Assembly: GCA_904424815.1 (NCBI GenBank)
Contig: CAJGBI010000001.1
Span: forward strand, 1,227,671-1,259,670
DNA length: 32,000 nt
Origin: Puniceicoccaceae bacterium Marseille-Q1082
GTDB lineage: Bacteria > Verrucomicrobiota > Verrucomicrobiia > Opitutales > Intestinicryptomonadaceae
Direction of reading: 5' to 3'
A program made the position numbers and the translations under genes. The notes under the pieces are model-generated. The model was not told where the DNA came from. It was given only the letters and a program-made list of their open reading frames with translations, and did not search any database. This document shows positions 1 through 29,159 of the stretch, piece by piece. Position 1 is the stretch's first letter; each line of letters opens with the position of its first letter.

Positions 1-1
1 T

Positions 2-1255: not shown

Positions 1256-1256
1256 C

Positions 1257-5238: not shown

Positions 5239-5274
5239 ATATCAAAAATAGAAGGCAAAATTAAGGGGAAACGT

Positions 5275-6444: not shown

Positions 6445-6454
6445 TCGTCCGGAA

Positions 6455-8679: not shown

Positions 8680-8681
8680 CC

Positions 8682-10846: not shown

Positions 10847-11745
10847 TGCCAAAAAAACCGGCAGCAAAAAAAGCCTCCACATGGCGCGACCTCAAATCCG
10901 ACGGCGGGAAAAGGCGCCGGAAGATACCGCTGTCGCTGCGCGCCAAGCTGCGGGTTGTCTGGCTGTGGGCGCGCGCGGCTCTCGCGCTCGCGGCGCTCGG
11001 GGGCCTTGGATACGGCGCGTACTTCCTGTACCAAAACGCATTCATCGAAGACATCTTCGCCCCGAAAGACGCGCGCATAAAGCGCATAGAATTTAAAACA
11101 GACGGGCTCGCAACCGCCGAATGGCTCAAAAGCTACCTGAAAATTCCGCCCGACGCCCGCCTCGGCGACGTCAATATTTTCGCGGTAAAAAGCGCGCTCG
11201 AATCCCTGTCGCAAATTGAATCGGCGTCTGTGGAGCGCGCATATCCGGACGCGCTGAAAATCACCCTGACTGAGCTAAAGCCCTTTATGAAGCTCTTTGC
11301 GGACGTCTCCGGAAAGCGGAAAATTTTCATAATGTCGCCCGACGGCAGGTTCTTCGAGCCCTCGTGCGTCCCGCCCGAAATGATAGACGCCATGCCCAGG
11401 CTCGACGGCTGGGCGCCGCGCTTCGACGGCGCGGTTCCGCAGCCCTGCAAGTTCGCTCCGGAAATCGCCGGATTTCTCGGCGCGGCGCACGCAGCCCTCC
11501 CCGCGGTTGCGCGCGGCTGGAAGAGCATAGACGTGTCAGACCTCGGAAGCCTCACCCTGCCCCTGCTGAAAGTCGTCGACGCCTCCGGAATGGAGATAAT
11601 CTTCGCCCCGAAAGACTACAAAAAACAGTTCGGGAGGCTCGAATATATCTTGCGTTATCAGAGGGAAAACCCTTTAACAGTCATAAAGCGCATAGACCTG
11701 TCGATAAAGGGGTGGGCGCCAGTAAAAATCAAGACGACCAAATGA
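10846..11745 (+). CDS. ftsQ: cell division protein FtsQ (POTRA domain)
   Basis: Basic N-terminus, a single TM segment (VVWLWARAALALAALGGLGYGAYFLY), then a POTRA-like IKRIEFKTDG... segment. TAATG overlap with ddl, and position before ftsA. Confidence 0.75.
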   Translation: MPKKPAAKKASTWRDLKSDGGKRRRKIPLSLRAKLRVVWLWARAALALAALGGLGYGAYFLYQNAFIEDIFAPKDARIKRIEFKTDGLATAEWLKSYLKIPPDARLGDVNIFAVKSALESLSQIESASVERAYPDALKITLTELKPFMKLFADVSGKRKIFIMSPDGRFFEPSCVPPEMIDAMPRLDGWAPRFDGAVPQPCKFAPEIAGFLGAAHAALPAVARGWKSIDVSDLGSLTLPLLKVVDASGMEIIFAPKDYKKQFGRLEYILRYQRENPLTVIKRIDLSIKGWAPVKIKTTK

Positions 11746-12944
11746 GCGACAGCAAGACAATAACGGCGTTGGAAATCGGCACCGGAAAGATGCAGGTTTT
11801 CATCGGCGAGATAGTGGACGGCAAAATGCTCAACCTCGTTGGCGTCGGGCAGGCGGCCACCGACGGCGTGAAAAAGGCGGACATCATCGACGTGAAAAAG
11901 GCAGCCGAGCAGGCTCAAACGGCCATAGTCATGGCGGAGCGCTCCTGTTCGGCGCGGATAAAGTCCGTGTGCCTCGGCATAAGCGGAACCCACATACAAG
12001 GCTTCAGAAACATAGGGTCGGCGAACGTTGCGGGCTCCGACGGCATAGTCCGCAAGAGCGACGTTGACCGCGCAAAGGAGGACGCAAAGAGCAAGGCGCT
12101 GCCCGACGGCAGAAGCTATATACACAGGATCTGCTGCGGGTTCTACCTCGACGACGAAAGGTATTGCGTCGACCCCGTCGGCGAGCGCGCCTCGAAGATA
12201 GCGGCGGAATACTGGATGATGCACGGCGACAGCGAAAAAATCCTCACGGCCATGCACGTGGTTCATAGCTTCGGAATGGAGGTGGAATACCTCGTGTTCT
12301 CGGGGCTCGCCTCCGCGATGGCGGCGTCTTCTCCGGTCCAGAAGGAGAACGGGGTGCTGGTCGTGGACATCGGCTGCGGGACGAGCGACTACGCTTTCTA
12401 CAAAAACGGCATTCCCGTGCAGGCGGGCGTAATCCCGATAGGCGGCGACCACATCACCAACGACCTCTCGTTCGGAATACGGCTGAGCCGGAAAAATTCC
12501 GAGCGCATTAAGACCCGCTTCGGAAAGGCGATAATTACCGAAGACGAGCGCAACGTCAAATTCTGGAGCCTCGGCGACAGGCAGATCGGCGACAGAAAAA
12601 TTCCGTTGGAGGCCATAAACAAAGTCATACGCGCGCGCCTGGAAGAGCTGTTTTTGCTGCTGCGCCAGGACATGATAGACCACTTTTCGGAGGGCTCGGT
12701 CAACGAGGTCGTCCTGACGGGCGGAACGTCGAAGCTCAACGGGATATGCGAGCTCGCCGAAGCCGTGCTCGAACGCCCGTGCTCGCTCGGCAAATTCCCG
12801 CCGTCGGTCGCCGAAAACCTGCGCCACCAGGAATTCTCAACCGCGCTCGGGCTGCTCGAATACGCCAGGATGAAGGAGACGAGCGGCGGCTCGAAGAGCG
12901 GGAACTCCATAACCGACAAAATCGCAAAATTTTTTAAAATCTGA
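11742..12944 (+). CDS. ftsA: cell division protein FtsA
   Basis: Start set to ATG 11742 (ATGA overlap with the ftsQ stop). Actin-fold motifs ALEIGTGKM, VVDIGCGTSDY, IPIGGDHITNDL and LTGGTSKLNG. Confidence 0.88.
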   Translation: MSDSKTITALEIGTGKMQVFIGEIVDGKMLNLVGVGQAATDGVKKADIIDVKKAAEQAQTAIVMAERSCSARIKSVCLGISGTHIQGFRNIGSANVAGSDGIVRKSDVDRAKEDAKSKALPDGRSYIHRICCGFYLDDERYCVDPVGERASKIAAEYWMMHGDSEKILTAMHVVHSFGMEVEYLVFSGLASAMAASSPVQKENGVLVVDIGCGTSDYAFYKNGIPVQAGVIPIGGDHITNDLSFGIRLSRKNSERIKTRFGKAIITEDERNVKFWSLGDRQIGDRKIPLEAINKVIRARLEELFLLLRQDMIDHFSEGSVNEVVLTGGTSKLNGICELAEAVLERPCSLGKFPPSVAENLRHQEFSTALGLLEYARMKETSGGSKSGNSITDKIAKFFKI

Positions 12945-14233
12945 TGCAGACGGAAACCGGACAGAAGCTTTCAATCCGCGTCGCGGGCGTCGGGGGCGCG
13001 GGCGTGAAAATCGCCGCCGCCCTATGCGCCGCGGGTTGCGGAGGCGCGGATATTGCGGCCGTTGACACCGACGAAGCCTCCCTGCGCGACTGCCCTGTCG
13101 AAAACGCCGCCTGCGTCGGCAAGACGGCAACCGGCGGAATGGGCTCCGGAGGGGATCCGGCGACCGCGAAGGAGGCCGCCATATCAGACCTCGCCGCGCT
13201 CAAGCGCATCGCCTCGGGCGCGGACGTATTCATCTGCGTCGCCGGCCTCGGCGGCGGAACCGGCAGCGTAATCGCGCCGATACTCGCAAAGCTCGCGGCG
13301 GAAAACGGCGCAAAGCTCGTAATTTCATTCTCCCTGATGCCGCTATCGGTCGAGGGGGTCGACAAGTCGTCGCTCGCCGAGCGCTCGGTGCGCTACATGC
13401 GCAAGGTATGCGACGCCGCCGCCGCCCTGCCCAACGACATAATCCTCGCGCGCTCCGCCCTGCCGGTAAAGGCGGCGTTTGAAGCCGCAAACATGTACGC
13501 CGTATCCGCAATAGGCGAGATATGCGCCATGCTCCTCAACAGGGGCGTGGTCAACATAGGAATCCCGTCTTTCAAAAAGGCGTTTTTCCAGAAAGGCTTG
13601 CCGACTTTCTTCGGCATAGGCTGCGGGAAGGGCGCAAACGCCGTCGGAGACGCCGCGGCGGAACTCGCCTCCTCCCCTCTCCTGGGCGGAGGGGCTGCGG
13701 GCCTCAACGCCGAAAGCCTCATGATTTCCCTCGTCTGCGGGGAGGATTTCGAGATGAATAAAATGCAGTCCCTGCTCGAAACGGTATCGCAGGCCTTCGG
13801 CGTGCGCGAGCGGATTTGCTTCGGGGCGTCCGTGGACAAGTCGATGCAGGGGCGCATAAGAGTCTGCGCCATGGGCCTTGCCGGCAATCCGGAGCGCGCT
13901 CCTCAGGCGCCCGGCGCCGCCTCCAAACCGCCCGCGGCACCCCGCGCTACGGCGGAGCTTGCGGGCGCGGGCAAAAACCCGCCGGAGGGCGAGGAATCCG
14001 CAGCGAGCAGTAGAGAGGAGCCCAAACCGAAAAAATCGCGCGGATTTTTCAGCTTCGTGCGCCCGAAAGCCAAACCGGCCCCCCGCGAACCCGGGGCGGA
14101 ACAGTCGGAGTTCAAATTCGTCGAGATGTCGGAACAGCGCGGATTTTTCGAGGACACGCCCGTGAATATGCGCAAGGGCGAGGATCTCGACGTGCCGACT
14201 TTCATGCGCAGAAACATAAAAATAAACTTATAG
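12944..14233 (+). CDS. ftsZ: divergent FtsZ homologue
   Basis: TGATG overlap with ftsA. N-terminal IRVAGVGGAGVKIA, tubulin-signature variant GLGGGTGSV (13244-13270), AVDTD and LPND motifs. A P/A-rich linker is followed by the conserved C-terminal peptide DLDVPTFMRRN. It is clearly more divergent than typical FtsZ (see findings). Confidence 0.8.
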   Translation: MQTETGQKLSIRVAGVGGAGVKIAAALCAAGCGGADIAAVDTDEASLRDCPVENAACVGKTATGGMGSGGDPATAKEAAISDLAALKRIASGADVFICVAGLGGGTGSVIAPILAKLAAENGAKLVISFSLMPLSVEGVDKSSLAERSVRYMRKVCDAAAALPNDIILARSALPVKAAFEAANMYAVSAIGEICAMLLNRGVVNIGIPSFKKAFFQKGLPTFFGIGCGKGANAVGDAAAELASSPLLGGGAAGLNAESLMISLVCGEDFEMNKMQSLLETVSQAFGVRERICFGASVDKSMQGRIRVCAMGLAGNPERAPQAPGAASKPPAAPRATAELAGAGKNPPEGEESAASSREEPKPKKSRGFFSFVRPKAKPAPREPGAEQSEFKFVEMSEQRGFFEDTPVNMRKGEDLDVPTFMRRNIKINL

Positions 14234-14241
14234 ATTTTACC

Positions 14242-15564
14242 ATGAAAAAGAAAATATACCCCATACTGGCGGCGATAACCGCGATAGCGGCGTTCGCCTT
14301 TGCGGAAACGCAATCGGACGGAGACTTGAAAATGCGCCTCAAAGCCTCGCGCGACGGCTCGCTCTACAAAATGGGCGAACCCGCGGAGTTCGTCCTCGAA
14401 ATATCCAACGGCGACAAGCCGCAGGGCGGAATCCGCTTCTGGAGCAGCGTCAGCAAAGACGGCGCAAGCCCCGTTGTCTCGAACCGCGGAATAACCGACA
14501 AAGACGGGAAGGCGGTAATCAAGGCCGGCACGCTCAACGAACCCGGGGTTCTCAGGTGCGCGGTCGGCGTCTACAATCCCGAGACTAAAAAGGAAACGCA
14601 GCTTCTTGCCGGCGCCGGATTCGAACTTGAAAAAATCCGCCCCGGGCTGCCCGTACCCGAGGACTTCGCCGAATACTGGAAGGCGCAAAAGAGAATGCTC
14701 TCGGAAATCCCGATGAACGCGGATATGAAAGAGGTTCCGTGCGACAACAAAAACGTGGAGCTCTTTGACATAAAAGCCGACACGTTCAAAGGCCTGCTCA
14801 CCGGCTACTACGCCCGCCCGAAGGGCGCCAAGCCAAAGAGCTGCCCGGCGATTCTCTTCCCGCACGGCGCGGGGGTGAGATCCTCCGGAAAGGGCGCGCC
14901 CGTTGCGTGGGCGGCGCAGGGGTATATCGCGCTCGACTACAACGCGCACGGCATACCCAACGGCAAGTCCAAGGAATTTTACGACGAGCTCGCCAAGAAA
15001 GACCTCAAAGACTACCGCTATATCGGCGCGGACAACCGCGACAACAGCTTCTTCCGCGTCCTATACCTGCGCACGATGAGGGCGCTCGAATTTCTGATGG
15101 AACAGCCCGAATGGGACGGCAAAATCCTTATCGTAAACGGCACGAGCCAAGGTGGCGGGCAGGCGCTCGCCGCCGGCGGGCTATGCGACAAGGTGACGTT
15201 TGTCGCCGCGTTCGTGCCCGCAATGTGCGACCACAACGGGATAGCCGCCGGGCGCGTATGCGGCTGGCCCAACCTGCTGAGGGCCGACAAATACGGCGCG
15301 TACGACAAGAGCGTCTACGAGGCTTCGAGGTATTTTGACGCCGCCAACTTCGCCTCAATGATAAAAGGCGACGCTTTCGTCACGACGGGGCTGCGCGACA
15401 ATGTGTGCCCGCCGAGCTCCGTGTTCGCGGCGTACTCGAATATCAAGAGCCCGAAATCCTTCCGCATAGTCGAGGAAGGCAGCCACGGCGTTCCGCAGGA
15501 GGTCTACGCCGAGGGCGCGGAAAAAATCAAGGAGCACGTAAAGAAGATGCGCTCCAAAAACTGA
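14242..15564 (+). CDS. secreted alpha/beta hydrolase of the acetylxylan esterase / cephalosporin-C deacetylase (AXE1, CE7-like) type
   Basis: Signal peptide MKKKIYPILAAITAIAAFAFA, an N-terminal ~130-aa beta-rich domain, the nucleophile elbow GTSQGGG, and C-terminal EGSHG. The start is 8 bp after the ftsZ stop. Confidence 0.75.
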   Translation: MKKKIYPILAAITAIAAFAFAETQSDGDLKMRLKASRDGSLYKMGEPAEFVLEISNGDKPQGGIRFWSSVSKDGASPVVSNRGITDKDGKAVIKAGTLNEPGVLRCAVGVYNPETKKETQLLAGAGFELEKIRPGLPVPEDFAEYWKAQKRMLSEIPMNADMKEVPCDNKNVELFDIKADTFKGLLTGYYARPKGAKPKSCPAILFPHGAGVRSSGKGAPVAWAAQGYIALDYNAHGIPNGKSKEFYDELAKKDLKDYRYIGADNRDNSFFRVLYLRTMRALEFLMEQPEWDGKILIVNGTSQGGGQALAAGGLCDKVTFVAAFVPAMCDHNGIAAGRVCGWPNLLRADKYGAYDKSVYEASRYFDAANFASMIKGDAFVTTGLRDNVCPPSSVFAAYSNIKSPKSFRIVEEGSHGVPQEVYAEGAEKIKEHVKKMRSKN

Positions 15565-15596
15565 CGCGCTTCCCGCATTTCGGAAACAGCGTTGAA

Positions 15597-15630
15597 AATT
15601 GGGCGCGCGGAGTTTTCCGCGCGCCCAATT
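15597..15630. terminator. bidirectional hairpin between the convergent esterase and purT genes
   Basis: Perfect 15-bp stem AATTGGGCGCGCGGA / TCCGCGCGCCCAATT with loop GTTT. The flanks (GAAAATT...AATTTG) give short A/T tracts on both sides. Confidence 0.6.
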
Positions 15631-15668
15631 TGCGCCTGGCGCGAAAGCCGCGCCGGAGAGCACAGCCG

Positions 15669-16856
15669 CTAAAAAGTTTTTATCTCAAAGTCGGCGAGCA
15701 TTTCGGCGGTCGTAGCGTCGGCGCGCTCCACGGTGTCCGAGCGCGCGAGAAGCACGGCCATGCGCCTGTGCCCGCCCGTCACGCACGGCTTGGAAAATAT
15801 CCGCATGTCGGTATTCGGCCGCGACAAAACTTTGTCCAGCCCGCAATACTCGAGCATTTCGGAGTTCTTCTCGACTACCACCGCCCTGCTCGCCGACGGC
15901 CCGTAAAGCTCTATTTCCGGAATAGGTATTCCGAGTATCGCGCGCGCGTGCAGCGCGAACTCCGAAAGATTCTGCGATATCATAGTCACCATGCCGGTGT
16001 CGTGCGGGCGCGGAGAAACCTCCGAAAACAGAACCTCGTCTCCCCTGACGAACATCTCGACGCCGAAAATCCCGTAGCCGCCGAGGGCGTCGGTTATTTT
16101 CTTCGCGTAATCCTTCGCCCTTTCGAGGGCGAGCGCGCCCATGGGATGCGGCTGCCAGCTCCTGCGGTAGTCGCCCGAGACCTGTTCGTGCCCTATCGGC
16201 GCGCAAAAAGAAGTTCCACCCGAGTGCCGCACCGTCAAAAGCGTGATTTCGTAGTCGAAGTCCACAAACCCCTCTACTATCACCTCGCCTCCGCCCGCGC
16301 GCCCGCCCGTCTGGGAACATTCCCACGCGGCGTCGATTTGGCTTTCGTCGCGCACAGTGCTCTGCCCGTGCCCGGAAGAGCTCATTATCGGCTTCACCAC
16401 GCACGGTATTCCGATCTTCTTCACGGCCTCCAAAAATTCCTCCTTCGTGCCCGCAAAAGCGTAAGGGGAAGTCTTCATTCCGAGCTTTTCCGCCGCAAGC
16501 GTCCTGATCCCCTTGCGGTTCATGGTGAAATTCACTGCTCCCGCCGTGGGCACCACATTGAAGCCCCGCCCTTCGAGCTCCACGAGCTTTTGAGTGGCAA
16601 TAGCCTCGACTTCGGGAATTATGTAGGCAGGGTTCTCCTCGAGCACGACGCGCTCGAGGGCGTCGGCGTCGAGCATGGATATGACGTGCGAGCGGTCGGC
16701 GACCTGCATAGCCGGCGCGTCCGCGTACTTGTCAACCGCGACAACCTCGAGGCCGAGCCGCTTGAGCTCTATTGCGACCTCCCTCCCGAGCTCCCCGCTG
16801 CCGAGCAGCATCGCCTTTGTGGAATTTTTCTTAAAAACAGTGCCTACGTTTGTCAT
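15669..16856 (-). CDS. purT: formate-dependent phosphoribosylglycinamide formyltransferase PurT
   Basis: Near-colinear resemblance to E. coli PurT as I recall it ([37 protein letters not shown]). Start set to ATG 16856 (MTNVGTVF...), which makes an ATGA overlap with the upstream gene's stop. Confidence 0.93.
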
Positions 16857-18274: not shown

Positions 18275-18512
18275 AAAAATTTCCCGCCATCTTATCCCGC
18301 CGCAAAAAAAATGCAAAAAAAAACGGCCCCCGACGAAGAAATCCCCCGCCCCATCGCCAACCATAAGGTTAAAAACAGAAATCCCAATAAAGCCAAATGG
18401 GCAACGACAGCGCACTGCCATTACAGGCGCGAGGTGCACAGACCATAGAAGGGCGAATCCCCTTGCGAAGATCGGATTCGCCAATGCTTCTATCCCCTTC
18501 CCCGCTCCCCAC

Positions 18513-18542
18513 AAAAAAACGAACCTCCCATGAGAGGTTCGT
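18513..18542 (-). terminator. intrinsic terminator T1 of repeat unit
   Basis: Minus strand: ACGAACCTC-TCATGG-GAGGTTCGT followed by T7. Confidence 0.75.
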
Positions 18543-18685
18543 CAACACTTCCGGAGTTCGTTCCGAAAACCCAAGCTTCCCAGATTTGGCGCAATGATTT
18601 TGGAGATAAAAACGGGGCGCAAGCGAAACAAAGGGTTGAAGCGTATTAAACATACGCGAAACTCAACAGTTATCCGTTATCCAAC

Positions 18686-18715
18686 AAAAAAACGAACCTC
18701 CCATGAGAGGTTCGT
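18686..18715 (-). terminator. intrinsic terminator T2 of repeat unit
   Basis: Same 9-bp stem and 6-nt loop, followed by T7 on the minus strand. Confidence 0.75.
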
Positions 18716-18855
18716 CGACACTTCCGGAGTTCGTTCCGAAAACCGCAGGTTCCAGATTTGGCGCAATGATTTTGGAGCTAAAAACGGGGCGCAAGCGAAA
18801 CGGCGGATTGAAGCGTATTAAACATACGCGAAAGTCGCCGTTATCCGTCACCCAC

Positions 18856-18885
18856 AAAAAAACGAACCTCCCATGAGAGGTTCGT
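18856..18885 (-). terminator. intrinsic terminator T3 of repeat unit
   Basis: Same 9-bp stem and 6-nt loop, followed by T7 on the minus strand. Confidence 0.75.
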
Positions 18886-19027
18886 TAACACTTCCGGAGT
18901 TCGTTCCTGAAAACCAAGCTTCCCAGATTTGGCGCAATGATTTTGGAGCTAAAAACGGGGCGCAAGCGAAACGGCGGATTGAAGCGTATTAAACATACGC
19001 GAAACTCAACAGTTATACGTTCCCAAC

Positions 19028-19056
19028 AAAAAACGAACCTCCCATGAGAGGTTCGC
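19028..19056 (-). terminator. intrinsic terminator T4 of repeat unit (first terminator downstream of glgC)
   Basis: Minus strand: GCGAACCTC-TCATGG-GAGGTTCGT followed by T6. The basal pair is G.U on the minus strand only. Confidence 0.75.
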
Positions 19057-19096
19057 TAACACTTCCGGAGTTCGTTCCGAAAAGCCAAGGGTATCC

Positions 19097-19228
19097 GATT
19101 TGGCGCAATGATTTTGGAGCTAAAAACGGGGCGCAAGCGAAACGGCGGATTGAAGCGTATTAAACATACGCGAAAGTCGCCGTTATCGCGCAGCAACTCG
19201 TTTTTAGCCCAAAAGCATTCGCCAAATC
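19097..19228 (-). repeat. 132-nt long inverted repeat (REPIN/MITE-like hairpin) overlapping the glgC stop codon
   Basis: Arms 19097-19128 and 19199-19228 pair over ~29 bp with two bulges and one mismatch. Inner stem AACGGCG/CGCCGTT. Apical hairpin GCGTAT-N5-ATACGC. Confidence 0.85.
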
Positions 19229-20498
19229 AGGTGTGGGTGTTTGCGGGGATTACAGCTGTCTTTGTGACGATGAGTATGCCGTCGCGCACATAGAGGCCGT
19301 CGGATTCCCATTTGTCGGGCTTTCCGTCGGGAGAGAGCCAACAGTTGTCGCCGATGCTCGCGTTTTTGTCGATAATCGCGTTTTCTATGTGGCAGTTTCT
19401 GCCTATGCCGAGGCGCGGGGTCTTGTTGTGGCTGTGAAAGTCGTACATGTCTGCGCCCATCATTATGACGTTTTTCATGTACGTGCCCTCGCCTATTATG
19501 GAGCGCACGCCGACGATACAGCGTTCAAGCGTGGCGTTGCGTATGAGGCATCCGTCGGAGATGTCGCACCTCTCGACGCGGCTGCCGAATATGCGGGCGC
19601 CGGGCAGAAACCTGCTATGGGTGTAAACGGTCTGCCCTTTTTTATAAAAGTCGAACGGGGGAACGTCGTCGGTAAGGGCGAGGTTTGCATCGAAGAACGA
19701 GCGTATGGTGCCGATATCCTCCCAATAGCCGTTAAACACATACGCGCTGAGCTTCTTTTTCCCGAGCATTCCGGGAATCACCTCCTTGCCGAAGTCCATC
19801 TCGCTTCCGCCCATCGCCTCTTCGAGAATTTTTCTTGAGAACACATAGATGCCCATCGACGCCATGCAGTATCCCGCGGGATCGGGATTTTTTATGTCTG
19901 AAATCACGCTTGGGCTCACGAGGAAAGAGTCTATAACCGCGGGATCTTTGGGCTTTTCGGCGAATTCGACTATGTTGAGATCCTGGTCGACCTTCATGAC
20001 GCCGAGGTTCGGAGCCTCCGAGCGCGGCATTGGTTTCGCCGCGATGGTGATGTCCGCTCCGCTTTCAATGTGGGCGTTTATCATCTTGGTGAAATCCATC
20101 TGGTAGAGCTGGTCTCCGGAGAGGATGAGATAGTAGAGGTTTTCGCCCTGGTAGCGCTCGAAATGGTGCATGTTTTTGCGCACGGCGTCGGCGGTGCCCT
20201 GATACCAGCTTCCTCCGGAATCGGTCTGCTCGGCGGCGAGAATATCCACGAACCCCTGTCCGAAAGAATCGAATTTATAAGTCTGCTGGATATGCTTGTG
20301 AAGCGAAGCGGTGTTGAATTGGGAGAGGAGATATATGTGGTCGTAGCCCGAATTTATGCAATTGCTTATCGGGATGTCAACGAGCCTGTACTTCCCCGCT
20401 AGCGGAACCGCCGGCTTGCAGCGGTATTTTGTCAGGGGATAGAGGCGCGTCCCGCGCCCGCCGCCCATGATTATGCTGATTACGTTGTGTCTTGTCAT
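19227..20498 (-). CDS. glgC: glucose-1-phosphate adenylyltransferase
   Basis: Start set to ATG 20498 (MTRHNVISIIMGGGRGTRLYPLTKYRCKPAVP...). It has WYQGTADAV and a C-terminal left-handed beta-helix-type repeat region. The upstream 31 codons of the ORF-track call look non-coding. Confidence 0.92.
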   Translation of the reverse strand: MTRHNVISIIMGGGRGTRLYPLTKYRCKPAVPLAGKYRLVDIPISNCINSGYDHIYLLSQFNTASLHKHIQQTYKFDSFGQGFVDILAAEQTDSGGSWYQGTADAVRKNMHHFERYQGENLYYLILSGDQLYQMDFTKMINAHIESGADITIAAKPMPRSEAPNLGVMKVDQDLNIVEFAEKPKDPAVIDSFLVSPSVISDIKNPDPAGYCMASMGIYVFSRKILEEAMGGSEMDFGKEVIPGMLGKKKLSAYVFNGYWEDIGTIRSFFDANLALTDDVPPFDFYKKGQTVYTHSRFLPGARIFGSRVERCDISDGCLIRNATLERCIVGVRSIIGEGTYMKNVIMMGADMYDFHSHNKTPRLGIGRNCHIENAIIDKNASIGDNCWLSPDGKPDKWESDGLYVRDGILIVTKTAVIPANTHT

Positions 20499-20752
20499 AT
20501 TTCGGAATTTTAGGCGATGGCGTTTTTGACCCGCAATACGCGCGGGAGTTCCGGAAAGGCGGCCCGATCTGCGAAACCTCCCCCTCCGCAAAAACGCGGG
20601 AATTTTTTATCATTATAACCCCCGCAGTTTGCAGGGGATTATCGCATTTCCCCTCCGCAAATCCAGCTTTTTTTGATTATATTTCGCTCTACGTCAAAGA
20701 TTGTGGAATGGTGGAAAAAAAAGAGGGCAAAGAGAATAAAAAATGTTCTACA

Positions 20753-21934
20753 ATGCCCAATGTGTTAATCAAGGGTTACAAGATACTCAGGACAGTAAGA
20801 GTTGGTCAAGACTTTTCGCTTGCGGAAGTTGAGCATAAGCAGTCGGGTATACCCGACTGCTTATGCGGGTCGCATCGTTTGATACATTACGATTCCTACC
20901 GGCGTTATATTAAGCACGTCTCTGAAAACGGAGCTATTTATCATCTCAAGGTAAAATGCAAGCGTTACAAGTGTCTCGATTGCGGAAGGGTCTTTCGCGA
21001 AAGGCTTGAGGGAGTAAGGCCTTACGCTCGTCACTCGGAGAGGTTCAAAAACAGGCTCGTAAGTGAATACGCTCGGAACGTTTGCAATAAGGCTATTGCC
21101 CGGATTTACCGCATATCTGCAAGCACGGTTGAGCGGGCAATCCACAGTAGGTACGAGCAAAAGCTCAAAGAGCAAATCAACTATCCTTGTCCTGAAATTA
21201 TAGGAATAGACGAGCACACAATCCACAAGGGTTACAAGTTTGCGACTACGATAGCCGACTTATCGCACCACAGGGTATACGATGTTATTAAAGGGAAGAG
21301 ACATATCGATATAGCAGGCGCGCTAATGTCGTACAAAGGCAGGGAAAATGTGAAGGTAGTGTGCATGGATTTATCGAGCGGATATCGAAGTATCGTAAGG
21401 AGATGTTTTCCGAGGGCGAAGATAGTAGCGGATAGGTTTCATGTGATACGATTAGTGCTCCACCACTTTATGGAATTTTGCAAGAGTGCGCAGGAAGAAG
21501 TAAAGTGGAAGAGATCGATTACTTATCCTTTGCGGAAAAGGAGAGAGAGGCTAAAAGCGCAAGAGATGGAGCGGCTTAAAAGCTTTTTTAGTGGAAATCC
21601 GGCAATAGAGCTTGCGTACGAATTTAAGGAGCGATTATGCGGGCTATTGAATAAAAAGAGTCAGACGGCAAAGCAATGCAGGGATAACATAAGAAAGTTA
21701 AAGGAAATGATGAAGATAATGAAATACGAAGCGCCGACAGAGTTTGGGAAGCTTGCGGAAACGATAAGCGAATGGTTTGCGCCGATAATAAGAATGTGGA
21801 GATTTACAAAAAATAACGGAATAACGGAGGGCTTCCACCGCAAGATGAAATTAATACAACGCAGAGCCTACGGATACAGAAACTTTGAAAATTACAGACT
21901 GAGAGTCCTCGTGGAATGCGGGGTAAAACTATGA
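20753..21934 (+). CDS. ISL3-family DDE transposase
   Basis: zf-ISL3-like CxC...CxxC (CLCGSH...CLDCG), GIDEH, MDLSSGY and NNGITEGFHRKMKLIQRRAYGYRNFENYRLR. An alternative start at ATG 20708 lies inside the left IR. The ORF-track start at 20492 lies outside the IS and is rejected. Confidence 0.9.
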   Translation: MPNVLIKGYKILRTVRVGQDFSLAEVEHKQSGIPDCLCGSHRLIHYDSYRRYIKHVSENGAIYHLKVKCKRYKCLDCGRVFRERLEGVRPYARHSERFKNRLVSEYARNVCNKAIARIYRISASTVERAIHSRYEQKLKEQINYPCPEIIGIDEHTIHKGYKFATTIADLSHHRVYDVIKGKRHIDIAGALMSYKGRENVKVVCMDLSSGYRSIVRRCFPRAKIVADRFHVIRLVLHHFMEFCKSAQEEVKWKRSITYPLRKRRERLKAQEMERLKSFFSGNPAIELAYEFKERLCGLLNKKSQTAKQCRDNIRKLKEMMKIMKYEAPTEFGKLAETISEWFAPIIRMWRFTKNNGITEGFHRKMKLIQRRAYGYRNFENYRLRVLVECGVKL

Positions 21935-21946
21935 AAGACAAATCTA

Positions 21947-22020
21947 AAAAATCAACCTATTCCACAACCTTTGGTGTTGACCCAAAAATCAACCTATTCC
22001 ACAACCTTTGGTGTTGACCC
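21947..22020 (+). repeat. perfect tandem duplication (2 x 37 bp) of the IS right terminal repeat
   Basis: AAAAATCAACCTATTCCACAACCTTTGGTGTTGACCC occurs at 21947-21983 and again at 21984-22020. Confidence 0.9.
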
Positions 22021-22040
22021 AAATTTCGGGCAAATCCCAA

Positions 22041-23577: not shown

Positions 23578-26500
23578 ATGAAATTTTCCCACTTCTTCAT
23601 AGACAGGCCGATTTTCGCGACGGTAATATCCGTATTCATAACGTTCGTCGGCCTCATAGCGTTTTCCCAGCTGTCGCTCACGCAGTACCCGAACATTGCG
23701 CCCCCCGCGGTAAACGTCAGCGGCTCGTACTCCGGAGCGTCTCCGGAAGTCATAATGAACACCACCCTCGCCCCGCTCGAACAAAAGCTCAACGGCGTGG
23801 AAGGCATGATATACATGTCCAGCGAAGCGACCTCCGAGGGTTCGTGGTCCATAAACATAACTTTCGAGACCGGCGTTAACATCGACATGGCGCAGGTGCT
23901 CGTCCAAAACCGCGTGAGGCAGGCGGAAAACAGGATTCCGCAGGAAGTGCGCGACGTCGGCATAAACGTCTACAAGCGCAATCCGGACATACTGATGACT
24001 ATAAACCTCGTCTCACCCAACGGCACGCGCGACAAAATTTACCTCTCCAACTACGCGATCACCCAGATGCAGGACAGGCTCGCGCGCGTAAAGGGCGTCA
24101 GCGAATTCGGCGTGTGGGGCGCGAAGGAGTACAGCATGCGCGTGTGGCTCGACCCCGACAGGCTTGCGGCGGTCAACCTTTCGCCGATAGAGGTTGTCGA
24201 CGCCCTCAAAGAGCAGAATACGCAGGTGGCCGCTGGCAGGCTCAACCAGCCCCCGAGCGACACGGGCGCCGCCTTCGAGCTGCTCATCAACGCGCAGGGC
24301 AGGCTTGCGACAACCGAGGAATTCGGCGACATCATCGTAAAATACACCCCCGACGGGCGCATCATACATTTGAAGGACATCGCGCGCATAGAGCTCGGCG
24401 CGTACAGCTATTCGAACGAATCCTACATAAACCAGAAGAGCTCCGTGACAATGGGCGTATACCAGCTGCCCGGCACGAACGCCATCGAGACCGTAAAGCT
24501 GCTGCGCGCGGAACTCGAGGAAATGAAGAAAAACTTTCCCGACGACGTGGACTACGTCATAGGCTACGACACCACCGAGTACGTGCAGGAGTCCATCAAC
24601 GCCCTCTACCGCACGATATTCGAGGCCGTGGTGCTCGTGGTGCTGGTGATAATAGTATTCCTGCAAAGCTGGAGGGCGGCGATAATCCCGCTGTTCGCGA
24701 TACCCGTATCGCTGGTGGGCACGTTCGCGATAATGTACGCCTCCGGATTTACGATAAACAACCTCACGCTCTTCGGGCTGGTGCTCGCAATCGGCATAGT
24801 CGTCGACGACGCGATCGTCGTCGTCGAAAACGTGGAGCGCAACATGAAGGGCGGGCTCGGCGCGCGCGAGGCCACAAAGCAGGCGATGAGCCAGATACAG
24901 GGGGCGCTGATCGCCATCGTGCTGGTGCTGAGCTCGGCGTTTCTGCCAACCGCCTTCCTGCCGGGCATCTCGGGGCAGTTTTACAGGCAGTTCGCGATAA
25001 CAATCTCGACGTCAACCATCATATCGGGGCTGGTATCGCTCACCCTGACGCCCGCGCTATGCGCGCTATTTATGCGCCACTCCGCGCATGAAAAGAGGAG
25101 CCTCTTCGACCTGGTATGGGACTACTCCCTCGGATTTATCCTCAAATATTTCAATCTGGGCTTCGACAAGTTCGCCTTGTTTTACGGGAAATTCGTAAAG
25201 TTCGTGGTGAGGATCTCCGCGATAATGCTCATACTGTACTGCGGAATGATATGGGCGACCAAGGAGATATTCGTCGAGACCCCCACGGGCTTCATTCCCA
25301 AACAGGACAGAGGCTCTTTCAACGCCTGGCTGAGGCTTCCCGACGGGGCGTCGTTCGAGCGTTCGGAGGAGGCCGTTATAAAGGCCGGCAAGCTGCTCGC
25401 GGACATCGAGGGGATCCGCTACGCGGTGACTACCGCCGGACAGGGCGGCTCGAACGTCGGCAGGATAAATTTCAGGCTCTCCGACAGAAAGGAACGCGAC
25501 AAAAACGGCTGGACGCTCGACCACATAATGAACAGGGTAAAGAGCGTGCTCGACCGCGAAATACTCGAGGCCACCGTCAACGTGACGACCCCCGCCACGG
25601 TTCCGGGCATCGGCAGCGGCAGCGACTTCAAGCTGCAAGTCGAAGACCGCGCGGGGCTCGGCGTGTTCGAGCTCGAAAAATACACGAACGAGCTCATAGA
25701 GGCAATAAACGCCCTGCCCGCCGTCAACGACGCCTACACAACCTACACGACCAACAACCCGCAGCTCTACGCCACCATCGACCGAGAGAGGGCGCAAAAG
25801 CTGAACGTCTCGATAGACTCGATTTTCCGAACCTTGCAGTTCAACCTCGGCTCCGTCTATGTGAACGACTTCAACATTCTGGGGCGCGTCTACCGCGTCG
25901 TGGCGCAGGCGGAGGCGAGCAACCGCAAGGACATAGCCGACATCTACAAGCTCAAAGTCCCCAACGACCTCGGCCAAAACGTTCCCCTCGGGTCGGTTGT
26001 CACCATAAAGCGCGGCATAGGCCCGTACAAAATCGTCCGCTACAACCTCTATCCGAGCGCCGAAATACAGGGCAACCTGAACGAGGGGTACAGCACGGGA
26101 TACGTAATGAACGAAGTCGAAAAGCTCGCGGCAAAAATCCTGCCGCAGGGAATGGGCATCGAGTGGACGGACCTCGCATACCAGCAAAAGAAGGCGGGGA
26201 ATTCATCCATCTACATTTTCGCGGTCTGCGTGATTTTCGTCTTCCTGCTGCTCTCCGCGCTCTACGAGAGCTGGATTCTGCCGCTGTCGGTCATACTCGT
26301 GGTGCCGCTCGTGATACTCTTCGCGATGATAGGGGTCAACATCAGGGGGCTCGACAACAACCTTATGACGCAAATTGGCTTCGTGGTCCTAATAGGGCTG
26401 GCGTGCAAAAACGCCATACTCATAGTCGAGTTCGCAAAACAGCGCGAGGAGCACGGAGAGAAAATCGTCTCGGCGGTGAGCACGGCGGCGCAGAACCGCC

Positions 26501-26703
26501 TGAGGCCGATAGTCATGACGTCGCTTGCGTTCATCCTCGGCGTGGTGCCGCTGGCGTACGGGACGGGCTCGGGCTTTGAGCTGAGGCAGTCGCTTGGCAC
26601 GTCGGTTATGTTCGGAATGATAGGCGTGACGGTATTCGGATGCGTGTTCACGCCCGTATTCTACTATGTAATAAGGCGCATATTCGCCAAACCGAGAACC
26701 TAA
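23578..26703 (+). CDS. RND efflux permease (AcrB/MexB-like, HAE1 type)
   Basis: 1041 aa with N-terminus MKFSHFFIDRPIFATVISV, a 12-TM architecture with two large periplasmic loops, and the conserved TM4 GLVLAIGIVVDDAIVVVEN. Confidence 0.95.
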   Translation: MKFSHFFIDRPIFATVISVFITFVGLIAFSQLSLTQYPNIAPPAVNVSGSYSGASPEVIMNTTLAPLEQKLNGVEGMIYMSSEATSEGSWSINITFETGVNIDMAQVLVQNRVRQAENRIPQEVRDVGINVYKRNPDILMTINLVSPNGTRDKIYLSNYAITQMQDRLARVKGVSEFGVWGAKEYSMRVWLDPDRLAAVNLSPIEVVDALKEQNTQVAAGRLNQPPSDTGAAFELLINAQGRLATTEEFGDIIVKYTPDGRIIHLKDIARIELGAYSYSNESYINQKSSVTMGVYQLPGTNAIETVKLLRAELEEMKKNFPDDVDYVIGYDTTEYVQESINALYRTIFEAVVLVVLVIIVFLQSWRAAIIPLFAIPVSLVGTFAIMYASGFTINNLTLFGLVLAIGIVVDDAIVVVENVERNMKGGLGAREATKQAMSQIQGALIAIVLVLSSAFLPTAFLPGISGQFYRQFAITISTSTIISGLVSLTLTPALCALFMRHSAHEKRSLFDLVWDYSLGFILKYFNLGFDKFALFYGKFVKFVVRISAIMLILYCGMIWATKEIFVETPTGFIPKQDRGSFNAWLRLPDGASFERSEEAVIKAGKLLADIEGIRYAVTTAGQGGSNVGRINFRLSDRKERDKNGWTLDHIMNRVKSVLDREILEATVNVTTPATVPGIGSGSDFKLQVEDRAGLGVFELEKYTNELIEAINALPAVNDAYTTYTTNNPQLYATIDRERAQKLNVSIDSIFRTLQFNLGSVYVNDFNILGRVYRVVAQAEASNRKDIADIYKLKVPNDLGQNVPLGSVVTIKRGIGPYKIVRYNLYPSAEIQGNLNEGYSTGYVMNEVEKLAAKILPQGMGIEWTDLAYQQKKAGNSSIYIFAVCVIFVFLLLSALYESWILPLSVILVVPLVILFAMIGVNIRGLDNNLMTQIGFVVLIGLACKNAILIVEFAKQREEHGEKIVSAVSTAAQNRLRPIVMTSLAFILGVVPLAYGTGSGFELRQSLGTSVMFGMIGVTVFGCVFTPVFYYVIRRIFAKPRT

Positions 26704-26816
26704 TTTTTCAGAACAGTTCCGAAATATTAAAAATATAAGCGAGAGAATTCTTTAATTTCTTCCAACTCTCCAACAAAAAAATACAATCCAGGCGCATTGG
26801 CTTTGCCAATCGCCAA

Positions 26817-26897
26817 GGGGCGGCAGGGTCGCTTCTATTGAAAGGGACGGCAGGGCCGCTTCCATTGAAGGGGACGGCAGGGCCGCTTCCATTGAAG
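26817..26897. repeat. 3 x 27-bp tandem mini-repeat
   Basis: GGGGCGGCAGGGTCGCTTCTATTGAAA, then GGGACGGCAGGGCCGCTTCCATTGAAG twice. Related single units lie at 27278-27305 and 27609-27662. Confidence 0.85.
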
Positions 26898-26959
26898 GGG
26901 CTAACGCCCCTTACGAAGATTGGCTTCGCCAATGCTTCTATCCCCTCTCCGTTCCCCGC

Positions 26960-26989
26960 AAAAAAACGAACCTCCCATGGGAGGTTCGT
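26960..26989 (-). terminator. intrinsic terminator Ta of repeat unit
   Basis: Minus strand: ACGAACCTCC-CATG-GGAGGTTCGT (perfect 10-bp stem) followed by T7. Confidence 0.75.
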
Positions 26990-27368
26990 TAATACTTCCG
27001 GAATTCGTTCCGAAAACCAAGGGTTTCCGATTTGGCACAATGAAAACGAAAGCTTATTTTATCCGAAGCGCAGCGAGGCTATAAAATAAGGCTTTCGGGA
27101 AGGATAAAATGCGCTAGCATTTTATTCGGATATATACAAAACTCCATATGCGGAAACTTCGGGGGCAGGCGCATTGGCTTTGCCAATCGCCAGGGGGCTT
27201 GCCCCCTCTGCGGCAGGCGCGCCCCGCGCCCGCGCAGCGCAACCAAGCCAGCGAATCCATTTTGGATGAAGAGCGAGGGCGGGCGGCGGTGCCGCTTCCA
27301 TAGAAGGGGCTGGCGCCCCTTACGAAGATTGGCTTCGCCAATGCTTCTATCCCCTCTCCATTCCCCAC

Positions 27369-27398
27369 AAAAAAACGAACCTCCCATGAGAGGTTCGT
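27369..27398 (-). terminator. intrinsic terminator Tb of repeat unit
   Basis: Minus strand: ACGAACCTC-TCATGG-GAGGTTCGT followed by T7. Confidence 0.75.
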
Positions 27399-27747
27399 TA
27401 ATACTTCCAAAATTCGTTCTGAAAACCAAAGGTTCCCGATTTGGCGTAATGAAAACGAAAGCTTATTTTATCCGAAGCGCAGCGAGGCTATAAAATAAGG
27501 CTTTCGGGAAGGATAAAATGCGCTAGCATTTTACCCCGCAGGGGTGAGAACAGCGCGGATTGCGCGCAGCGCAACCAAGCGAGCGAATCCATTTTGGATG
27601 AAGAGCGAGGGCGGCACGGGCCGCCAGCCATTGAAGGGGGCGGCGGTGCCGCTTCCATAGAAGGGGCTGACGCCCCTTACGCCCATTGCTTTGCAATAGG
27701 GCTATCCTCACTATTTCGGAGTTCGTTTTAAAAACCAAAGGTTCCCC

Positions 27748-27879
27748 GATTTGGCGCAATGCTTTTGGATGAAGAGCGAGTATAGGGAAGCCGCCAAGGG
27801 CGCGTGGCGTATTCGACATACGCGAGCGGTCTTGGCGGCTTCCCTAACGGAGCTATTCGCCAAAAGCATTCGCCAAATC
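27748..27879 (-). repeat. 132-nt long inverted repeat (REPIN/MITE-like hairpin) 5 nt downstream of the MFS stop codon
   Basis: Outer arms GATTTGGCGCAATGCTTTTGG (27748-27768) and CCAAAAGCATTCGCCAAATC (27860-27879). Inner 16-bp perfect stem TAGGGAAGCCGCCAAG/CTTGGCGGCTTCCCTA. Apical GCGTAT-TCGAC-ATACGC. Confidence 0.85.
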
Positions 27880-27884
27880 GTGGA

Positions 27885-29159
27885 TTAGGATTCTTCGTAG
27901 TCCTTATCAAAGAAAAAGAACTTTGCTATCATAAGCAGCGCGACGGCTGAAAGGCAGCATATGGAGAGGCTCGCGATGGCGTACTGGGGATTCAGCATGT
28001 CGCGAATCCATCCGAGAACGGTGGGGGAAACTGAGCCGATTATGAAGCCGAAGCACAGCATTATCCCCATGCCGGTCGCCCTATACTTTGGCTGGACAAC
28101 GTCGAAGAGGGAGGCGAATAGGCTCGAGTCGTATACGCCCCTTGAAAATCCGAAGAAGAAAAGCGAGACATAGCAGAGAATGTCGTTTCCGAGAAACGCC
28201 ATGAGAACGGCAAACGGCGCCGTCAGCAGAAAGCCGACGGAGGTAGTCTCGAAGCGTATGACTTTTCTGCCTACCGCGGCGAGCCTGTCGGTTATGCGGC
28301 AGCCTATCATTATTCCGATAAACGCCCCTATGTACGACCATATAACGGCGTTGAACGCGGCGGCGGCGGGCTCCAAGCCGTGGACTTCCTGGAGGAAGTC
28401 GGGCATCCACGTCTTGTATCCGATGTCTATGCACACGTTCATTCCGAACACGAGCCCGAGTATTATGGCGGACGGCTTGCGAACCATCACAAGCAGCGCG
28501 TCTTTAAGGGTTGCCGCATCGTCGCCTGCGGGCGACTTTTTCGCCATGAGCTCGCGCGAATAGCGCATCAGAAATGATAGCACCAGCGCCCATATTATGC
28601 CGGCGCCGCCGACGGAGAAGAACGCGAGCCGCCAGCCCTCATAGCCGCCGACGCTCGGAATGTTTCCGATATAGCCCGCGAACAGGCTGCACACTATTAT
28701 GCCCAGATACTGCGCCGTCTGCAAAATTGAAAATGCGGTGGAGCGGTTCTTTTCAAAGTGCTGCCCCAGAAGCGACGACGCCGGCGGATAGTAGCACCCC
28801 TGCCCCAGTCCGTTCAGCACGCCGTAGGTGAAAATCATAAGCCCGATGCTCGCCACAAATCCCGAGAGGAATATGCCCGAGCAGAAAGTGAGAACTCCAA
28901 AGACTATCATCCACTTTCTGCGCAGGAAGTCGCTGGCGAGCCCTGAAAACAGAACGGTGACACCGTAAGTGAAAGCGAAAGCCGTCATCACCGCGCCCAT
29001 TTTTGCGGAACTGCCCTCGCCGAAATACTCTTTTATCTGCGGCAGAATCGAAGGGTATATCTGCCTCGATCCCTGGTGAATGAAGTATGCGACCCACAGC
29101 AGCGCCAGCAGCATCCATTTGTACATTTCCTCGTGGCTTTCAAGTCTTCTCAATTTCAT
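27885..29159 (-). CDS. MFS transporter (substrate unknown)
   Basis: 424 aa with ~12 predicted TM segments and the MFS loop 2-3 motif GLASDFLRRKW. Confidence 0.85.
   Translation of the reverse strand: MKLRRLESHEEMYKWMLLALLWVAYFIHQGSRQIYPSILPQIKEYFGEGSSAKMGAVMTAFAFTYGVTVLFSGLASDFLRRKWMIVFGVLTFCSGIFLSGFVASIGLMIFTYGVLNGLGQGCYYPPASSLLGQHFEKNRSTAFSILQTAQYLGIIVCSLFAGYIGNIPSVGGYEGWRLAFFSVGGAGIIWALVLSFLMRYSRELMAKKSPAGDDAATLKDALLVMVRKPSAIILGLVFGMNVCIDIGYKTWMPDFLQEVHGLEPAAAAFNAVIWSYIGAFIGIMIGCRITDRLAAVGRKVIRFETTSVGFLLTAPFAVLMAFLGNDILCYVSLFFFGFSRGVYDSSLFASLFDVVQPKYRATGMGIMLCFGFIIGSVSPTVLGWIRDMLNPQYAIASLSICCLSAVALLMIAKFFFFDKDYEES

Follow-up and report, generated by a model that had tools for sequence, protein, structure and literature searches.

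The question raised by the 1181-nt gap between an RND permease gene (23578-26703, plus strand) and an MFS gene (27885-29159, minus strand) of Puniceicoccaceae bacterium Marseille-Q1082 is what kind of element its repeated, hairpin-forming sequence represents. The gap lies in a window of 32,000 nucleotides (contig CAJGBI010000001.1, positions 1,227,671 to 1,259,670 of the forward strand), and the repeats occupy 26791-27879 (locus 2). An initial annotation, made from the sequence without database searches, described them as the second locus of a family also present at 18443-19228 (locus 1) and proposed that they could encode RNAs of about 200 nt, the structures of which are preserved by RNA-specific compensatory changes. 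That locus 2 consists of the same modules in the same orientation as locus 1 is borne out here, as is the lack of a credible open reading frame (ORF) in the gap; two mechanical ORFs lie inside it and neither has a Pfam match. The best reading of the sequence is that locus 2 is probably an array of a new, lineage-specific, multicopy mosaic repeat family of the type of the repetitive extragenic palindromes (REPs) and the bacterial interspersed mosaic elements (BIMEs), and it resembles the REP/BIME elements of Escherichia coli more than a cluster of small-RNA genes. As judged from the comparisons below, the structural description in the initial annotation stands, the interpretation as RNA genes is unproven, and the covariation argument offered for it fails. 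The most unusual property of the family is a long hairpin (LH) anchored to the stop codon of the upstream gene. The anatomy, copy number, covariation and stop-codon placement of the family and its gain and loss between species are described as observed; from them we infer how the arrays may be transcribed, how they may affect mRNA stability and termination, and how the copies may have spread.

The long hairpin and the stop codons of its host genes

The modules listed in the initial annotation, including an AAAATGC-TAGC-GCATTTT hairpin, a long AT-rich hairpin, a conserved box (CATTnnGCCAAATC) and a junction module, are all present, and the seven boxes, in a single orientation, are the only copies in the window. 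The box is real, but it had been overlooked that it is the 3' arm of a 132-nt hairpin at 27748-27879. Both arrays start directly behind a minus-strand gene, and their opening sequence, read on the minus strand, is GATTTGGCGAATGCTTTTGG, the inverted repeat of CCAAAA(G/T)CATTGCGCCAAATC, which holds the box. The LH that opens array 2 (27748-27879, minus strand), recognized by its fold, covariation and distance from the stop codon, has its 5' arm (GATTTGGCGAATGCTTTTGG) at 27860-27879 and its 3' arm (CCAAAAGCATTGCGCCAAATC) at 27748-27768, and begins 5 nt past the TAA stop codon of the MFS gene (27885-27887); the RNA fold of the segment 27640-27882 has an energy of −122 kcal/mol (z = −9.8). The LH of array 1 is located at 19097-19228 on the minus strand (RNA fold z = −8.9), and the stop codon of glgC, TGA at 19227-19229, consists of a T and the first two bases of this LH.

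Examination of 48 distinct copies, 131-133 nt in length and falling into about five interior subtypes, gives a consensus of 39 base pairs, 15 of which have changes on both sides, whereas the outer 19 pairs and an apical CGTA(T/C)/(A/G)TACG stem are nearly invariant. LH cells are paired in 98.7% of cases, as compared with 85.9% in shuffled data (none of 500 as high) and 33-47% when the partners are slid. The 5' arm is identical over 20 nt in all 10 copies at loci found via the terminator. The 3' arm, which was not part of the copy search, has a diversity of 0.03-0.05, confined to two unpaired positions, as opposed to 0.08-0.24 within subtypes and 0.42 overall for the interior. The hairpin also contains a bulged or extrahelical base and a mismatch.

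When the placement sites were clustered by the 90 nt upstream of LH, 69 distinct contexts were obtained. In 41 of these (59%) the TGA of the host gene is formed by a T and the first GA of LH, an arrangement identical with that at the end of glgC. A TAA or TAG abuts or overlaps LH in three contexts and a stop codon lies 2-15 nt upstream of it in four; in about 14 the stop is inside LH, the gene continuing for 8-18 codons, and in seven the stop is more than 15 nt upstream or there is no long ORF nearby. Overall, a stop codon is present within −15 to +56 of the LH start in about 62 of the 69 contexts, and in a single population (ERZ1673738) 27 of 29 sites have one within −15 to +36. The base before LH is T in 85% of contexts, and no target upstream of this T is conserved; a conserved C at −2 was considered as part of the element and rejected, since the enrichment of C is just as strong at −5 and −8, both third positions of codons. 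The gene downstream of complete arrays is convergent in 19 cases and codirectional in 14.

The host ORFs are genuine housekeeping genes, including guaA, leuA, rpsA, nrd and glgC, with Pfam domains that reach their last residues. GuaA ends in ...TIEWE with its Pfam domain covering 92 of 92 positions, the dimerization domain of LeuA reaches position 130 of 131, and in GlgC the domain extends to residue 452 of 454; other hosts encode ribosomal protein S1 and ribonucleotide reductase. Genes that enter LH are mostly read in the frame GAT TTG GCG AAT GCT TTT GGC GAA TAG, and the product acquires an 8-residue tail, DLANAFGE. Hosts with this tail (L113:8739-9818, L040:28-1848, L121:54-1451 and L034:117-1157) encode HemB, an SppA-like protein, a Cys/Met pyridoxal phosphate enzyme and a CMD/cupin protein, respectively. 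In the case of hemB, the Pfam ALAD match extends into the first residues of DLANAFGE (to 356 of 360), and the E. coli HemB has the sequence ...YFALDLA... near its C terminus, which hints that the junction between hemB and LH was formed at a microhomology. Coding past the TGA by read-through or selenocysteine insertion was rejected because the frame, although open through LH in two subtypes, is closed in a third and is broken by 1-nt differences in length.

Distribution, modules and mosaic structure

A chance origin of these structures is excluded because the modules recur in more than 140 loci of other assemblies. The MFS gene is carried by seven short-read contigs, all of which end 35 nt past its stop codon, and such a common break point is the signature of a multicopy repeat. 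An exact search with the terminator hairpin, using one genome per species, identified 18 loci in a metagenome-assembled genome (MAG) of Candidatus Merdousia (Verrucomicrobiota, Opitutales, Intestinicryptomonadaceae), four in an Opitutales gut MAG and one in another gut bin, many of them at contig ends, in addition to one unrelated chance match in a Parcubacteria MAG. The 20-nt 5' arm of LH is present in more than 120 metagenome stretches among the matches listed, mostly from human gut, and the population ERZ1673738 (∼14x coverage) contains at least 29 LH sites. The sites are scattered among numerous contigs at a density of one or two per 10-90 kb, and a covariance model of the core recovers ∼50 full-length copies in 98 loci. 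None of the viral contigs has the LH arm, and BLAST searches of phage and plasmid collections gave no match to the family. Exact 20-nt matches to the LH arm also occur in non-gut environmental contigs (L044, L051, L078, L080, L116 and L033), with no other module nearby and in one case within a long ORF; given the great size of the database, they probably arose by chance. On the evidence of these searches, the family is confined to Merdousia-like Opitutales. Full-text searches with the genus names Merdousia and Intestinicryptomonas yielded taxonomy, gut-survey and cohort papers, none of which deals with genomic repeats; with no match in Rfam or in phages and plasmids, the repeat family appears to be undescribed.

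Comparison of orthologous gene ends reveals turnover. The glgC gene of another species (L038) has its own TGA followed by unique sequence, without LH; a gene that ends with TAA at L081:8624 has an orthologue in L089 with TGA and LH; and at L021:7204 (L021:7180-7230) a decayed remnant of the 5' arm, GATTTTGCGAATTTCTTTCAG, still overlies the TGA, whereas orthologues elsewhere carry an intact LH. The same gene end can also be occupied in diverged species, sometimes by another LH subtype (glgC, and the gene shared by L011, L046 and L149). The absent, decayed and shared sites therefore indicate that copies are gained, lost or converted, yet are able to persist for a long time. Comparison of filled and empty glgC sites provided no clean pair that would define the distal boundary of the element, the downstream synteny being different.

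The minimal unit, found at loci L084 and L128, is composed of LH, a spacer of ∼40 nt and a terminator, ∼215 nt in all, followed by unique DNA. Arrays range in length from 130 to more than 1200 nt; in longer arrays the extra cores consist of the 3' arm, spacer and terminator, and GC hairpins are joined by CCCTTC(A/T)ATGG linkers. In the REP-like unit, designated J, an (A/G)TAG head is immediately followed by a 27-nt palindrome that has a single bulged base, and an AAGGGG/CCCCTT hairpin comes next. In ∼1 Mb of sampled loci there are 145 palindromes with such a head (130 ATAG and 15 GTAG), corresponding to 124 distinct copies, all of them intergenic. Their outer stems are perfectly complementary in 113 of the 124 copies and form three fully compensated subtypes, GAAG/CTTC (66 copies), GCCC/GGGC (29) and GGCG/CGCC (15). 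J units can be direct and inverted within one array (27298-27354 as compared with 27169-27191), and the composition of the array varies between orthologous sites. The only ORF flanked by J units in the sampled loci is a DUF4823 lipoprotein gene (Pfam E = 6e-25) in a low-GC stretch of ∼830 bp between two core units (L032:500-1320); this stretch, which replaces part of a partial LH, may have been inserted at the hairpin from a foreign source or may be a chimera produced by the assembly.

Reading from LH along the minus strand of locus 2, the first module is a core variant without a terminator (27655-27747), in which a short stem and a AAAACGAACTCCGAAA segment precede a REP-like unit, J'; the core model scores 42 bits at 27692-27770. 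J' (27655-27707, regular-expression coordinates) has an ATAG head, GCCC(T)ATTGC-AAA-GCAATGGGC and AAGGGG/CCCCTT. The initial annotation regarded this as a third, degenerate copy that had lost its terminator and replaced its palindrome with ATTGC/GCAAT; the copy, the missing terminator and the palindrome are as described, but it is a standard variant, common in related genomes, rather than a degenerate one. It is followed at 27563-27654 (minus strand) by GC-rich short hairpins and a segment that opens like the 3' arm of LH (CTCGCTCTTCATCCAAAA) and then diverges (TGGATTCGCT...), which recurs at 27231-27282 (direct repeat D15, 98% identity). The duplication of a 253-bp block, 26872-27124, as 27281-27533 at an offset of 409 bp was correctly identified and has an identity of 94%. 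The modules that occur twice on the minus strand are the AT-rich module, at 27457-27532 (with the AAAATGC-TAGC-GCATTTT hairpin at 27515-27532 and the long AT-rich hairpin at 27457-27505) and 27048-27123; the terminator-ended cores, at 27367-27456 (core model 102 bits; box CATTACGCCAAATC at 27438-27451, an AACC/GGTT stem and CAGAACGAATTTTGGAA at 27405-27421) and 26958-27047 (105 bits; box CATTGTGCCAAATC at 27029-27042 and CGGAACGAATTCCGGAA at 26996-27012); and the J units, at 27298-27354 (with a GGGGATAG head, the bulged palindrome GAAG(C)ATTGGC-GAA-GCCAATCTTC, the AAGGGG/CCCCTT hairpin and CTATGG) and 26889-26945. An inverted REP-like palindrome, GGCG(C)ATTGGC-TTT-GCCAATCGCC, which carries a GTAG head in related loci, is present on the plus strand at 27169-27191 and again at 26792-26814, and a 27-bp tandem repeat of 3.2 copies, formed by a GC hairpin and a CCCTTCAATGG linker, occupies 26815-26900 on the minus strand (Tandem Repeats Finder score 137, 93% matches).

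The two cores end in the terminators Ta (26960-26990) and Tb (27369-27399), both on the minus strand, which had been recognized previously as identical to those of locus 1. With the four terminators of locus 1, these make six of the same sequence on the minus strand, with an 11-bp stem, a 4-nt loop and about seven U residues; the hairpin energy is −19.3 kcal/mol for Ta and −15.5 kcal/mol for Tb. In an alignment of the cores, the terminator alone is supported as a folded structure (covariation term −0.27). The small hairpin next to it was central to the proposed RNA-specific compensation, since it changes from CGGAA/TTCCG to CAGAA/TTTTG between the two copies. The change is present, but among 54 distinct cores it occurs once as a compensated pair: the 3' arm is fixed as CTCCG and the 5' arm is CGGAA in 26, TTTAA in 8, TGAAA in 7 and CAGAA in 7, the compensating TTTTG being found at Tb alone, whereas the six other CAGAA copies are uncompensated. 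At least two of the five pairs are broken in 26 of the 54 cores, and covariation of this hairpin and of the AACC/GGTT stem was rejected as unsupported over the distinct cores. Similarly, a U.G pair adjoining the terminator loop, which could be taken as an RNA signal, is lineage-specific; it holds in 5 of 6 copies in the window and in 20 of 26 in related gut populations, whereas 14 of 21 terminator-orientation copies in the Merdousia MAG have C.A.

No part of the family is more conserved than the AT-rich module, almost all positions of which are at least 95% conserved among 20 distinct copies drawn from several species; its unpaired linker, ATCCTTCCC, is likewise conserved. The module contains promoter-like hexamers on both strands, among them TTTATA-18-TAAAAT (consensus level) ∼90 nt upstream of each terminator of locus 2. 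A 15-codon ORF of the locus-1 unit was rejected, as it is not conserved in locus 2. Locus 2 falls outside the known Rfam families, its best match, Phe_leader, reaching 32.2 bits where the threshold is 55; at gathering thresholds the whole window contains two tRNAs only, and at a permissive E-value the two loci give only the subthreshold Phe_leader match, which is caused by the terminator.

Function and origin of the arrays

The structures make up a cassette: a basic unit of ∼215 nt, consisting of LH on or abutting the stop codon, a short conserved spacer and a canonical intrinsic terminator, is joined to a gene at its 3' end and shares its orientation. Arrays would grow by tandem duplication and by addition of hairpin modules. 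The array would be transcribed as the 3' untranslated region (UTR) of the upstream gene; LH, flush with the ORF, would be a 3' barrier or processing hairpin, the base of which the terminating ribosome would have to melt, and the terminators would finish the transcript and insulate the neighboring gene. Taken as a whole, we regard this scheme as moderately probable. A link with translation termination is plausible because the conserved base of LH has to be unwound by any ribosome that reaches the stop codon, the placement is exact, and there is a precedent in the REPs of E. coli. Appendage to the 3' ends of upstream genes accounts for the arrays better than do independent RNAs of ∼200 nt.

An imperfect palindrome headed by GTAG, a small number of compensated types and mosaics in which the tandem number varies are characteristic of REPs and BIMEs (PMC3333891). 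REPs are terminator-stabilizers of 3' UTRs, REP325 being both terminator and stabilizer (bioRxiv 10.64898/2026.03.23.713779), and ribosomes stall in E. coli where a REP lies no more than 15 nt from a stop codon (PMC12306157). The present family is similar in its many dispersed intergenic 3' UTR copies between convergent or codirectional genes, its short imperfect palindrome with a 4-nt head (here mostly ATAG) and an irregularity in the stem, its few discrete compensated stem subtypes, its combination of units and linkers into mosaics of varied length and composition, and the roles that can be proposed for it, namely 3' stabilizer, terminator and near-stop translation brake (PMC3333891, PMC12306157, bioRxiv 10.64898/2026.03.23.713779). 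It differs in placing the stop overlap at one exact position in 59% of contexts, whereas ∼11% of predicted E. coli REPs are within 15 nt of a stop (PMC12306157). Other differences are that the leading module is a 131-nt hairpin with invariant 20-nt arms, as opposed to the 30-40 nt of a REP, that the family has Rho-independent terminators of its own and a highly conserved AT-rich module, and that its host is verrucomicrobial.

Some features are shared with other repeats. The mycobacterial interspersed repetitive units are likewise tandem intergenic units of variable copy number with ends that overlap the stop codon of the upstream gene, but they are 40-100-bp direct repeats in operons, with small ORFs that overlap both flanking genes, and not long hairpins with terminators. 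The repeats that resemble miniature inverted-repeat transposable elements (MITEs), such as Correia/NEMIS, ERIC, YPAL, BOX and RIME, are long hairpins of 100-200 nt, cotranscribed with their neighbors and often near stop codons, BOX and RIME being also modular; we know of no report that any of them supplies the host stop codon at a fixed position in most copies and of no sequence similarity between them and this family. The inverted repeats at the termini of MITE-like hairpin repeats are accompanied by target-site duplications, TA for example; no target-site duplication is visible here.

It should be noted that several observations weigh against the 3' UTR cassette. No known mechanism of REP or MITE insertion accounts for the exact +2 junction, which is seen in 59% of contexts, and no REP-associated transposase (RAYT) was found in the ∼1 Mb of sampled loci with a crude HUH...Y..NP motif. 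A purely structural 3' hairpin would need no sequence-invariant 20-nt arms; their invariance suggests recognition by a protein or nucleic acid. In addition, the strand signal that would favor a gene-sense RNA is absent from both fold energies and mismatch counts. The specificity for one RNA strand that had been claimed is not supported by LH, since the opposite strand folds better as RNA in all 48 copies (−76.6 as compared with −67.6 kcal/mol for the gene-sense strand), and A.C mismatches outnumber G.U pairs (107 to 55), although in terms of independent events the difference, 19 to 12, is not significant. The antisense LH is better by ∼9 kcal/mol because the mismatches are mostly pyrimidine-pyrimidine on the gene-sense strand; this advantage could arise from selection on the antisense, from a single-stranded DNA form or from the shared ancestry of a few subtypes. 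The fold energies, the G.U and A.C counts, the terminator wobble and the small hairpin therefore provide no evidence at the level of the family for a structure specific to minus-strand RNA, and the hairpins are equally compatible with recognition at the DNA level.

The last point bears on the possibility, which we consider real if doubtful, that the arrays are selfish DNA and nothing else, their hairpins being copied as single-stranded or cruciform DNA by a putative HUH/Y1 (RAYT-like) or other hairpin-specific enzyme and their position reflecting insertion specificity and the removal of harmful insertions, without any advantage to the host. Invariant arms, a variable interior, a bulge and a mismatch are features of REP and attC substrates (PMC3333891), and the T that precedes the element in 85% of contexts creates a junction, C^TGAT, that resembles the E. 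coli RAYT cleavage site, TGCC^TGAT (PMC3333891); the lack of a strand bias in favor of sense RNA, the differences in occupancy at orthologous sites, the decayed copies and the acquisition of the element-derived DLANAFGE tail by some host genes are also as expected from such DNA. However, an enzyme is blind to the reading frame, and intergenic targets should dominate, yet 59% of the contexts are in frame at +2; there is no conserved target before the T, the C at −2, −5 and −8 being a codon-position effect, and the sampled DNA yielded no transposase candidate. Occupation of the same gene end in diverged species argues for long retention, and so against selfish DNA as the sole explanation. Less probable still, and in our judgment very improbable, is the reading of LH as an integron-like attC-type site at the 3' end of mobile gene cassettes. 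The attC sites, such as the Vibrio cholerae repeats, are similar in palindrome size and architecture and likewise sit on the stop codon of the ORF before them: in LH, which is imperfectly palindromic and 131-133 nt long, the ends are conserved, the center varies but stays paired and one base is extrahelical, and the hairpin starts at or on the preceding stop in the orientation of that ORF. In one array (L032) a low-GC and possibly foreign gene is enclosed. Nevertheless, its ends are GATTTGG...CCAAATC (GATTTGGCG ... CGCCAAATC in 48 of 48 copies) and not RYYYAAC...GTTRRRY, its hosts are dispersed core genes (rpsA, guaA, leuA, hemB and glgC) and not cassette arrays, and no integrase was seen adjoining any array or in the window; the sequence of the core sites and the distribution in the genome go most of the way to refuting this reading.

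The interpretation put forward in the initial annotation, that the cores are independent small-RNA genes in which an AT-rich promoter drives a 90-200-nt RNA from near the CAUUGCGCCAAAUC box to Ta or Tb, appears quite unlikely. The TTTATA-18-TAAAAT motif on the sense strand ∼90 nt upstream of both terminators, the exceptional conservation of the AT-rich module, the strength of the terminators (−15 to −19 kcal/mol, 7 U) and the complementarity that the box would have to the 5' arm of LH at no fewer than 29 stop codons are in its favor. The promoter scan, however, gave 11 sites where 6.7 are expected, and since a palindrome supplies both hexamers as its arms, such motifs arise for free. The AT-rich module is, moreover, absent from the cores of locus 1 and from minimal units, and what follows it in the Merdousia MAG is not a terminator but other modules; core structure beyond the terminator is unsupported (−0.27), about half of the copies have a broken small hairpin, and there is no Rfam match. 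It should be recognized that neither small-RNA genes nor selfish DNA would be mutually exclusive with the 3' UTR cassette. An extension of that cassette, which we consider unlikely, is that LH is a stop-coupled device in dozens of housekeeping genes (rpsA, guaA, leuA, hemB, nrd and glgC among them) and forms, with cores acting in trans, a genome-wide post-transcriptional regulon. A ribosome unwinding the sequence-invariant base of LH at termination would expose the 3' arm, untranslated mRNA would retain a 20-bp duplex as a target for RNase III or another factor, and the extra cores, with a partnerless 3' arm and perhaps transcribed from the AT-rich module, would act in trans on the 5' arms.

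Interspersed hairpin repeats are best understood in Proteobacteria, whereas this family comes from uncultured gut Verrucomicrobiota and combines REP-like units with a long hairpin set on the stop codons of dozens of core genes with single-nucleotide precision. This precision is hard to explain by insertion alone, and the family is therefore a natural system for questions about 3' hairpins and the terminating ribosome. In practical terms, it interrupts the short-read assembly of these genomes at predictable points and presents annotators with spurious ORFs and DLANAFGE C-terminal tails that are worth recognizing.

Array 1 and the remainder of the window

Array 1, behind glgC, consists principally of four tandem cores with a 171-bp period at 18511-19119 on the minus strand (3.9 copies by Tandem Repeats Finder; core model 103-113 bits), each ended by a terminator (19028-19057, 18856-18886, 18686-18716 and 18513-18543, minus strand). 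A complete LH is found in the first unit only, units 2-4 retaining the inner part and the 3' arm, and the array is closed by a degenerate J unit at 18443-18497 (minus strand; direct repeat D5), 80% identical to the J units of locus 2. Four consecutive terminators are thus located between glgC and a lipid A acyltransferase gene, and the pair in locus 2 faces the convergent RND operon.

Between glgC and the genes for tRNA-Gln and tRNA-Ala there is an ISL3-family transposase gene (Pfam DDE_Tnp_ISL3; 20492-22030). The inverted repeats of this element are imperfect (20679-20709 with 21959-21989 and with 21996-22024), and its right end is tandemly duplicated (37 bp, 2.1 copies, 21947-22023). It was considered as an autonomous partner from which LH might derive as a MITE and was rejected, its inverted repeats being unrelated to the arms of LH. 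The left half of the window (1-16000) is occupied by densely packed plus-strand ORFs, in which a motif at 88-145 recurs at 4263-4320 with 74% identity; by eye it would encode a G-T-N-G-K-T ATP-binding loop, and the sequence suggests Mur-ligase genes of a cell-wall or division cluster.

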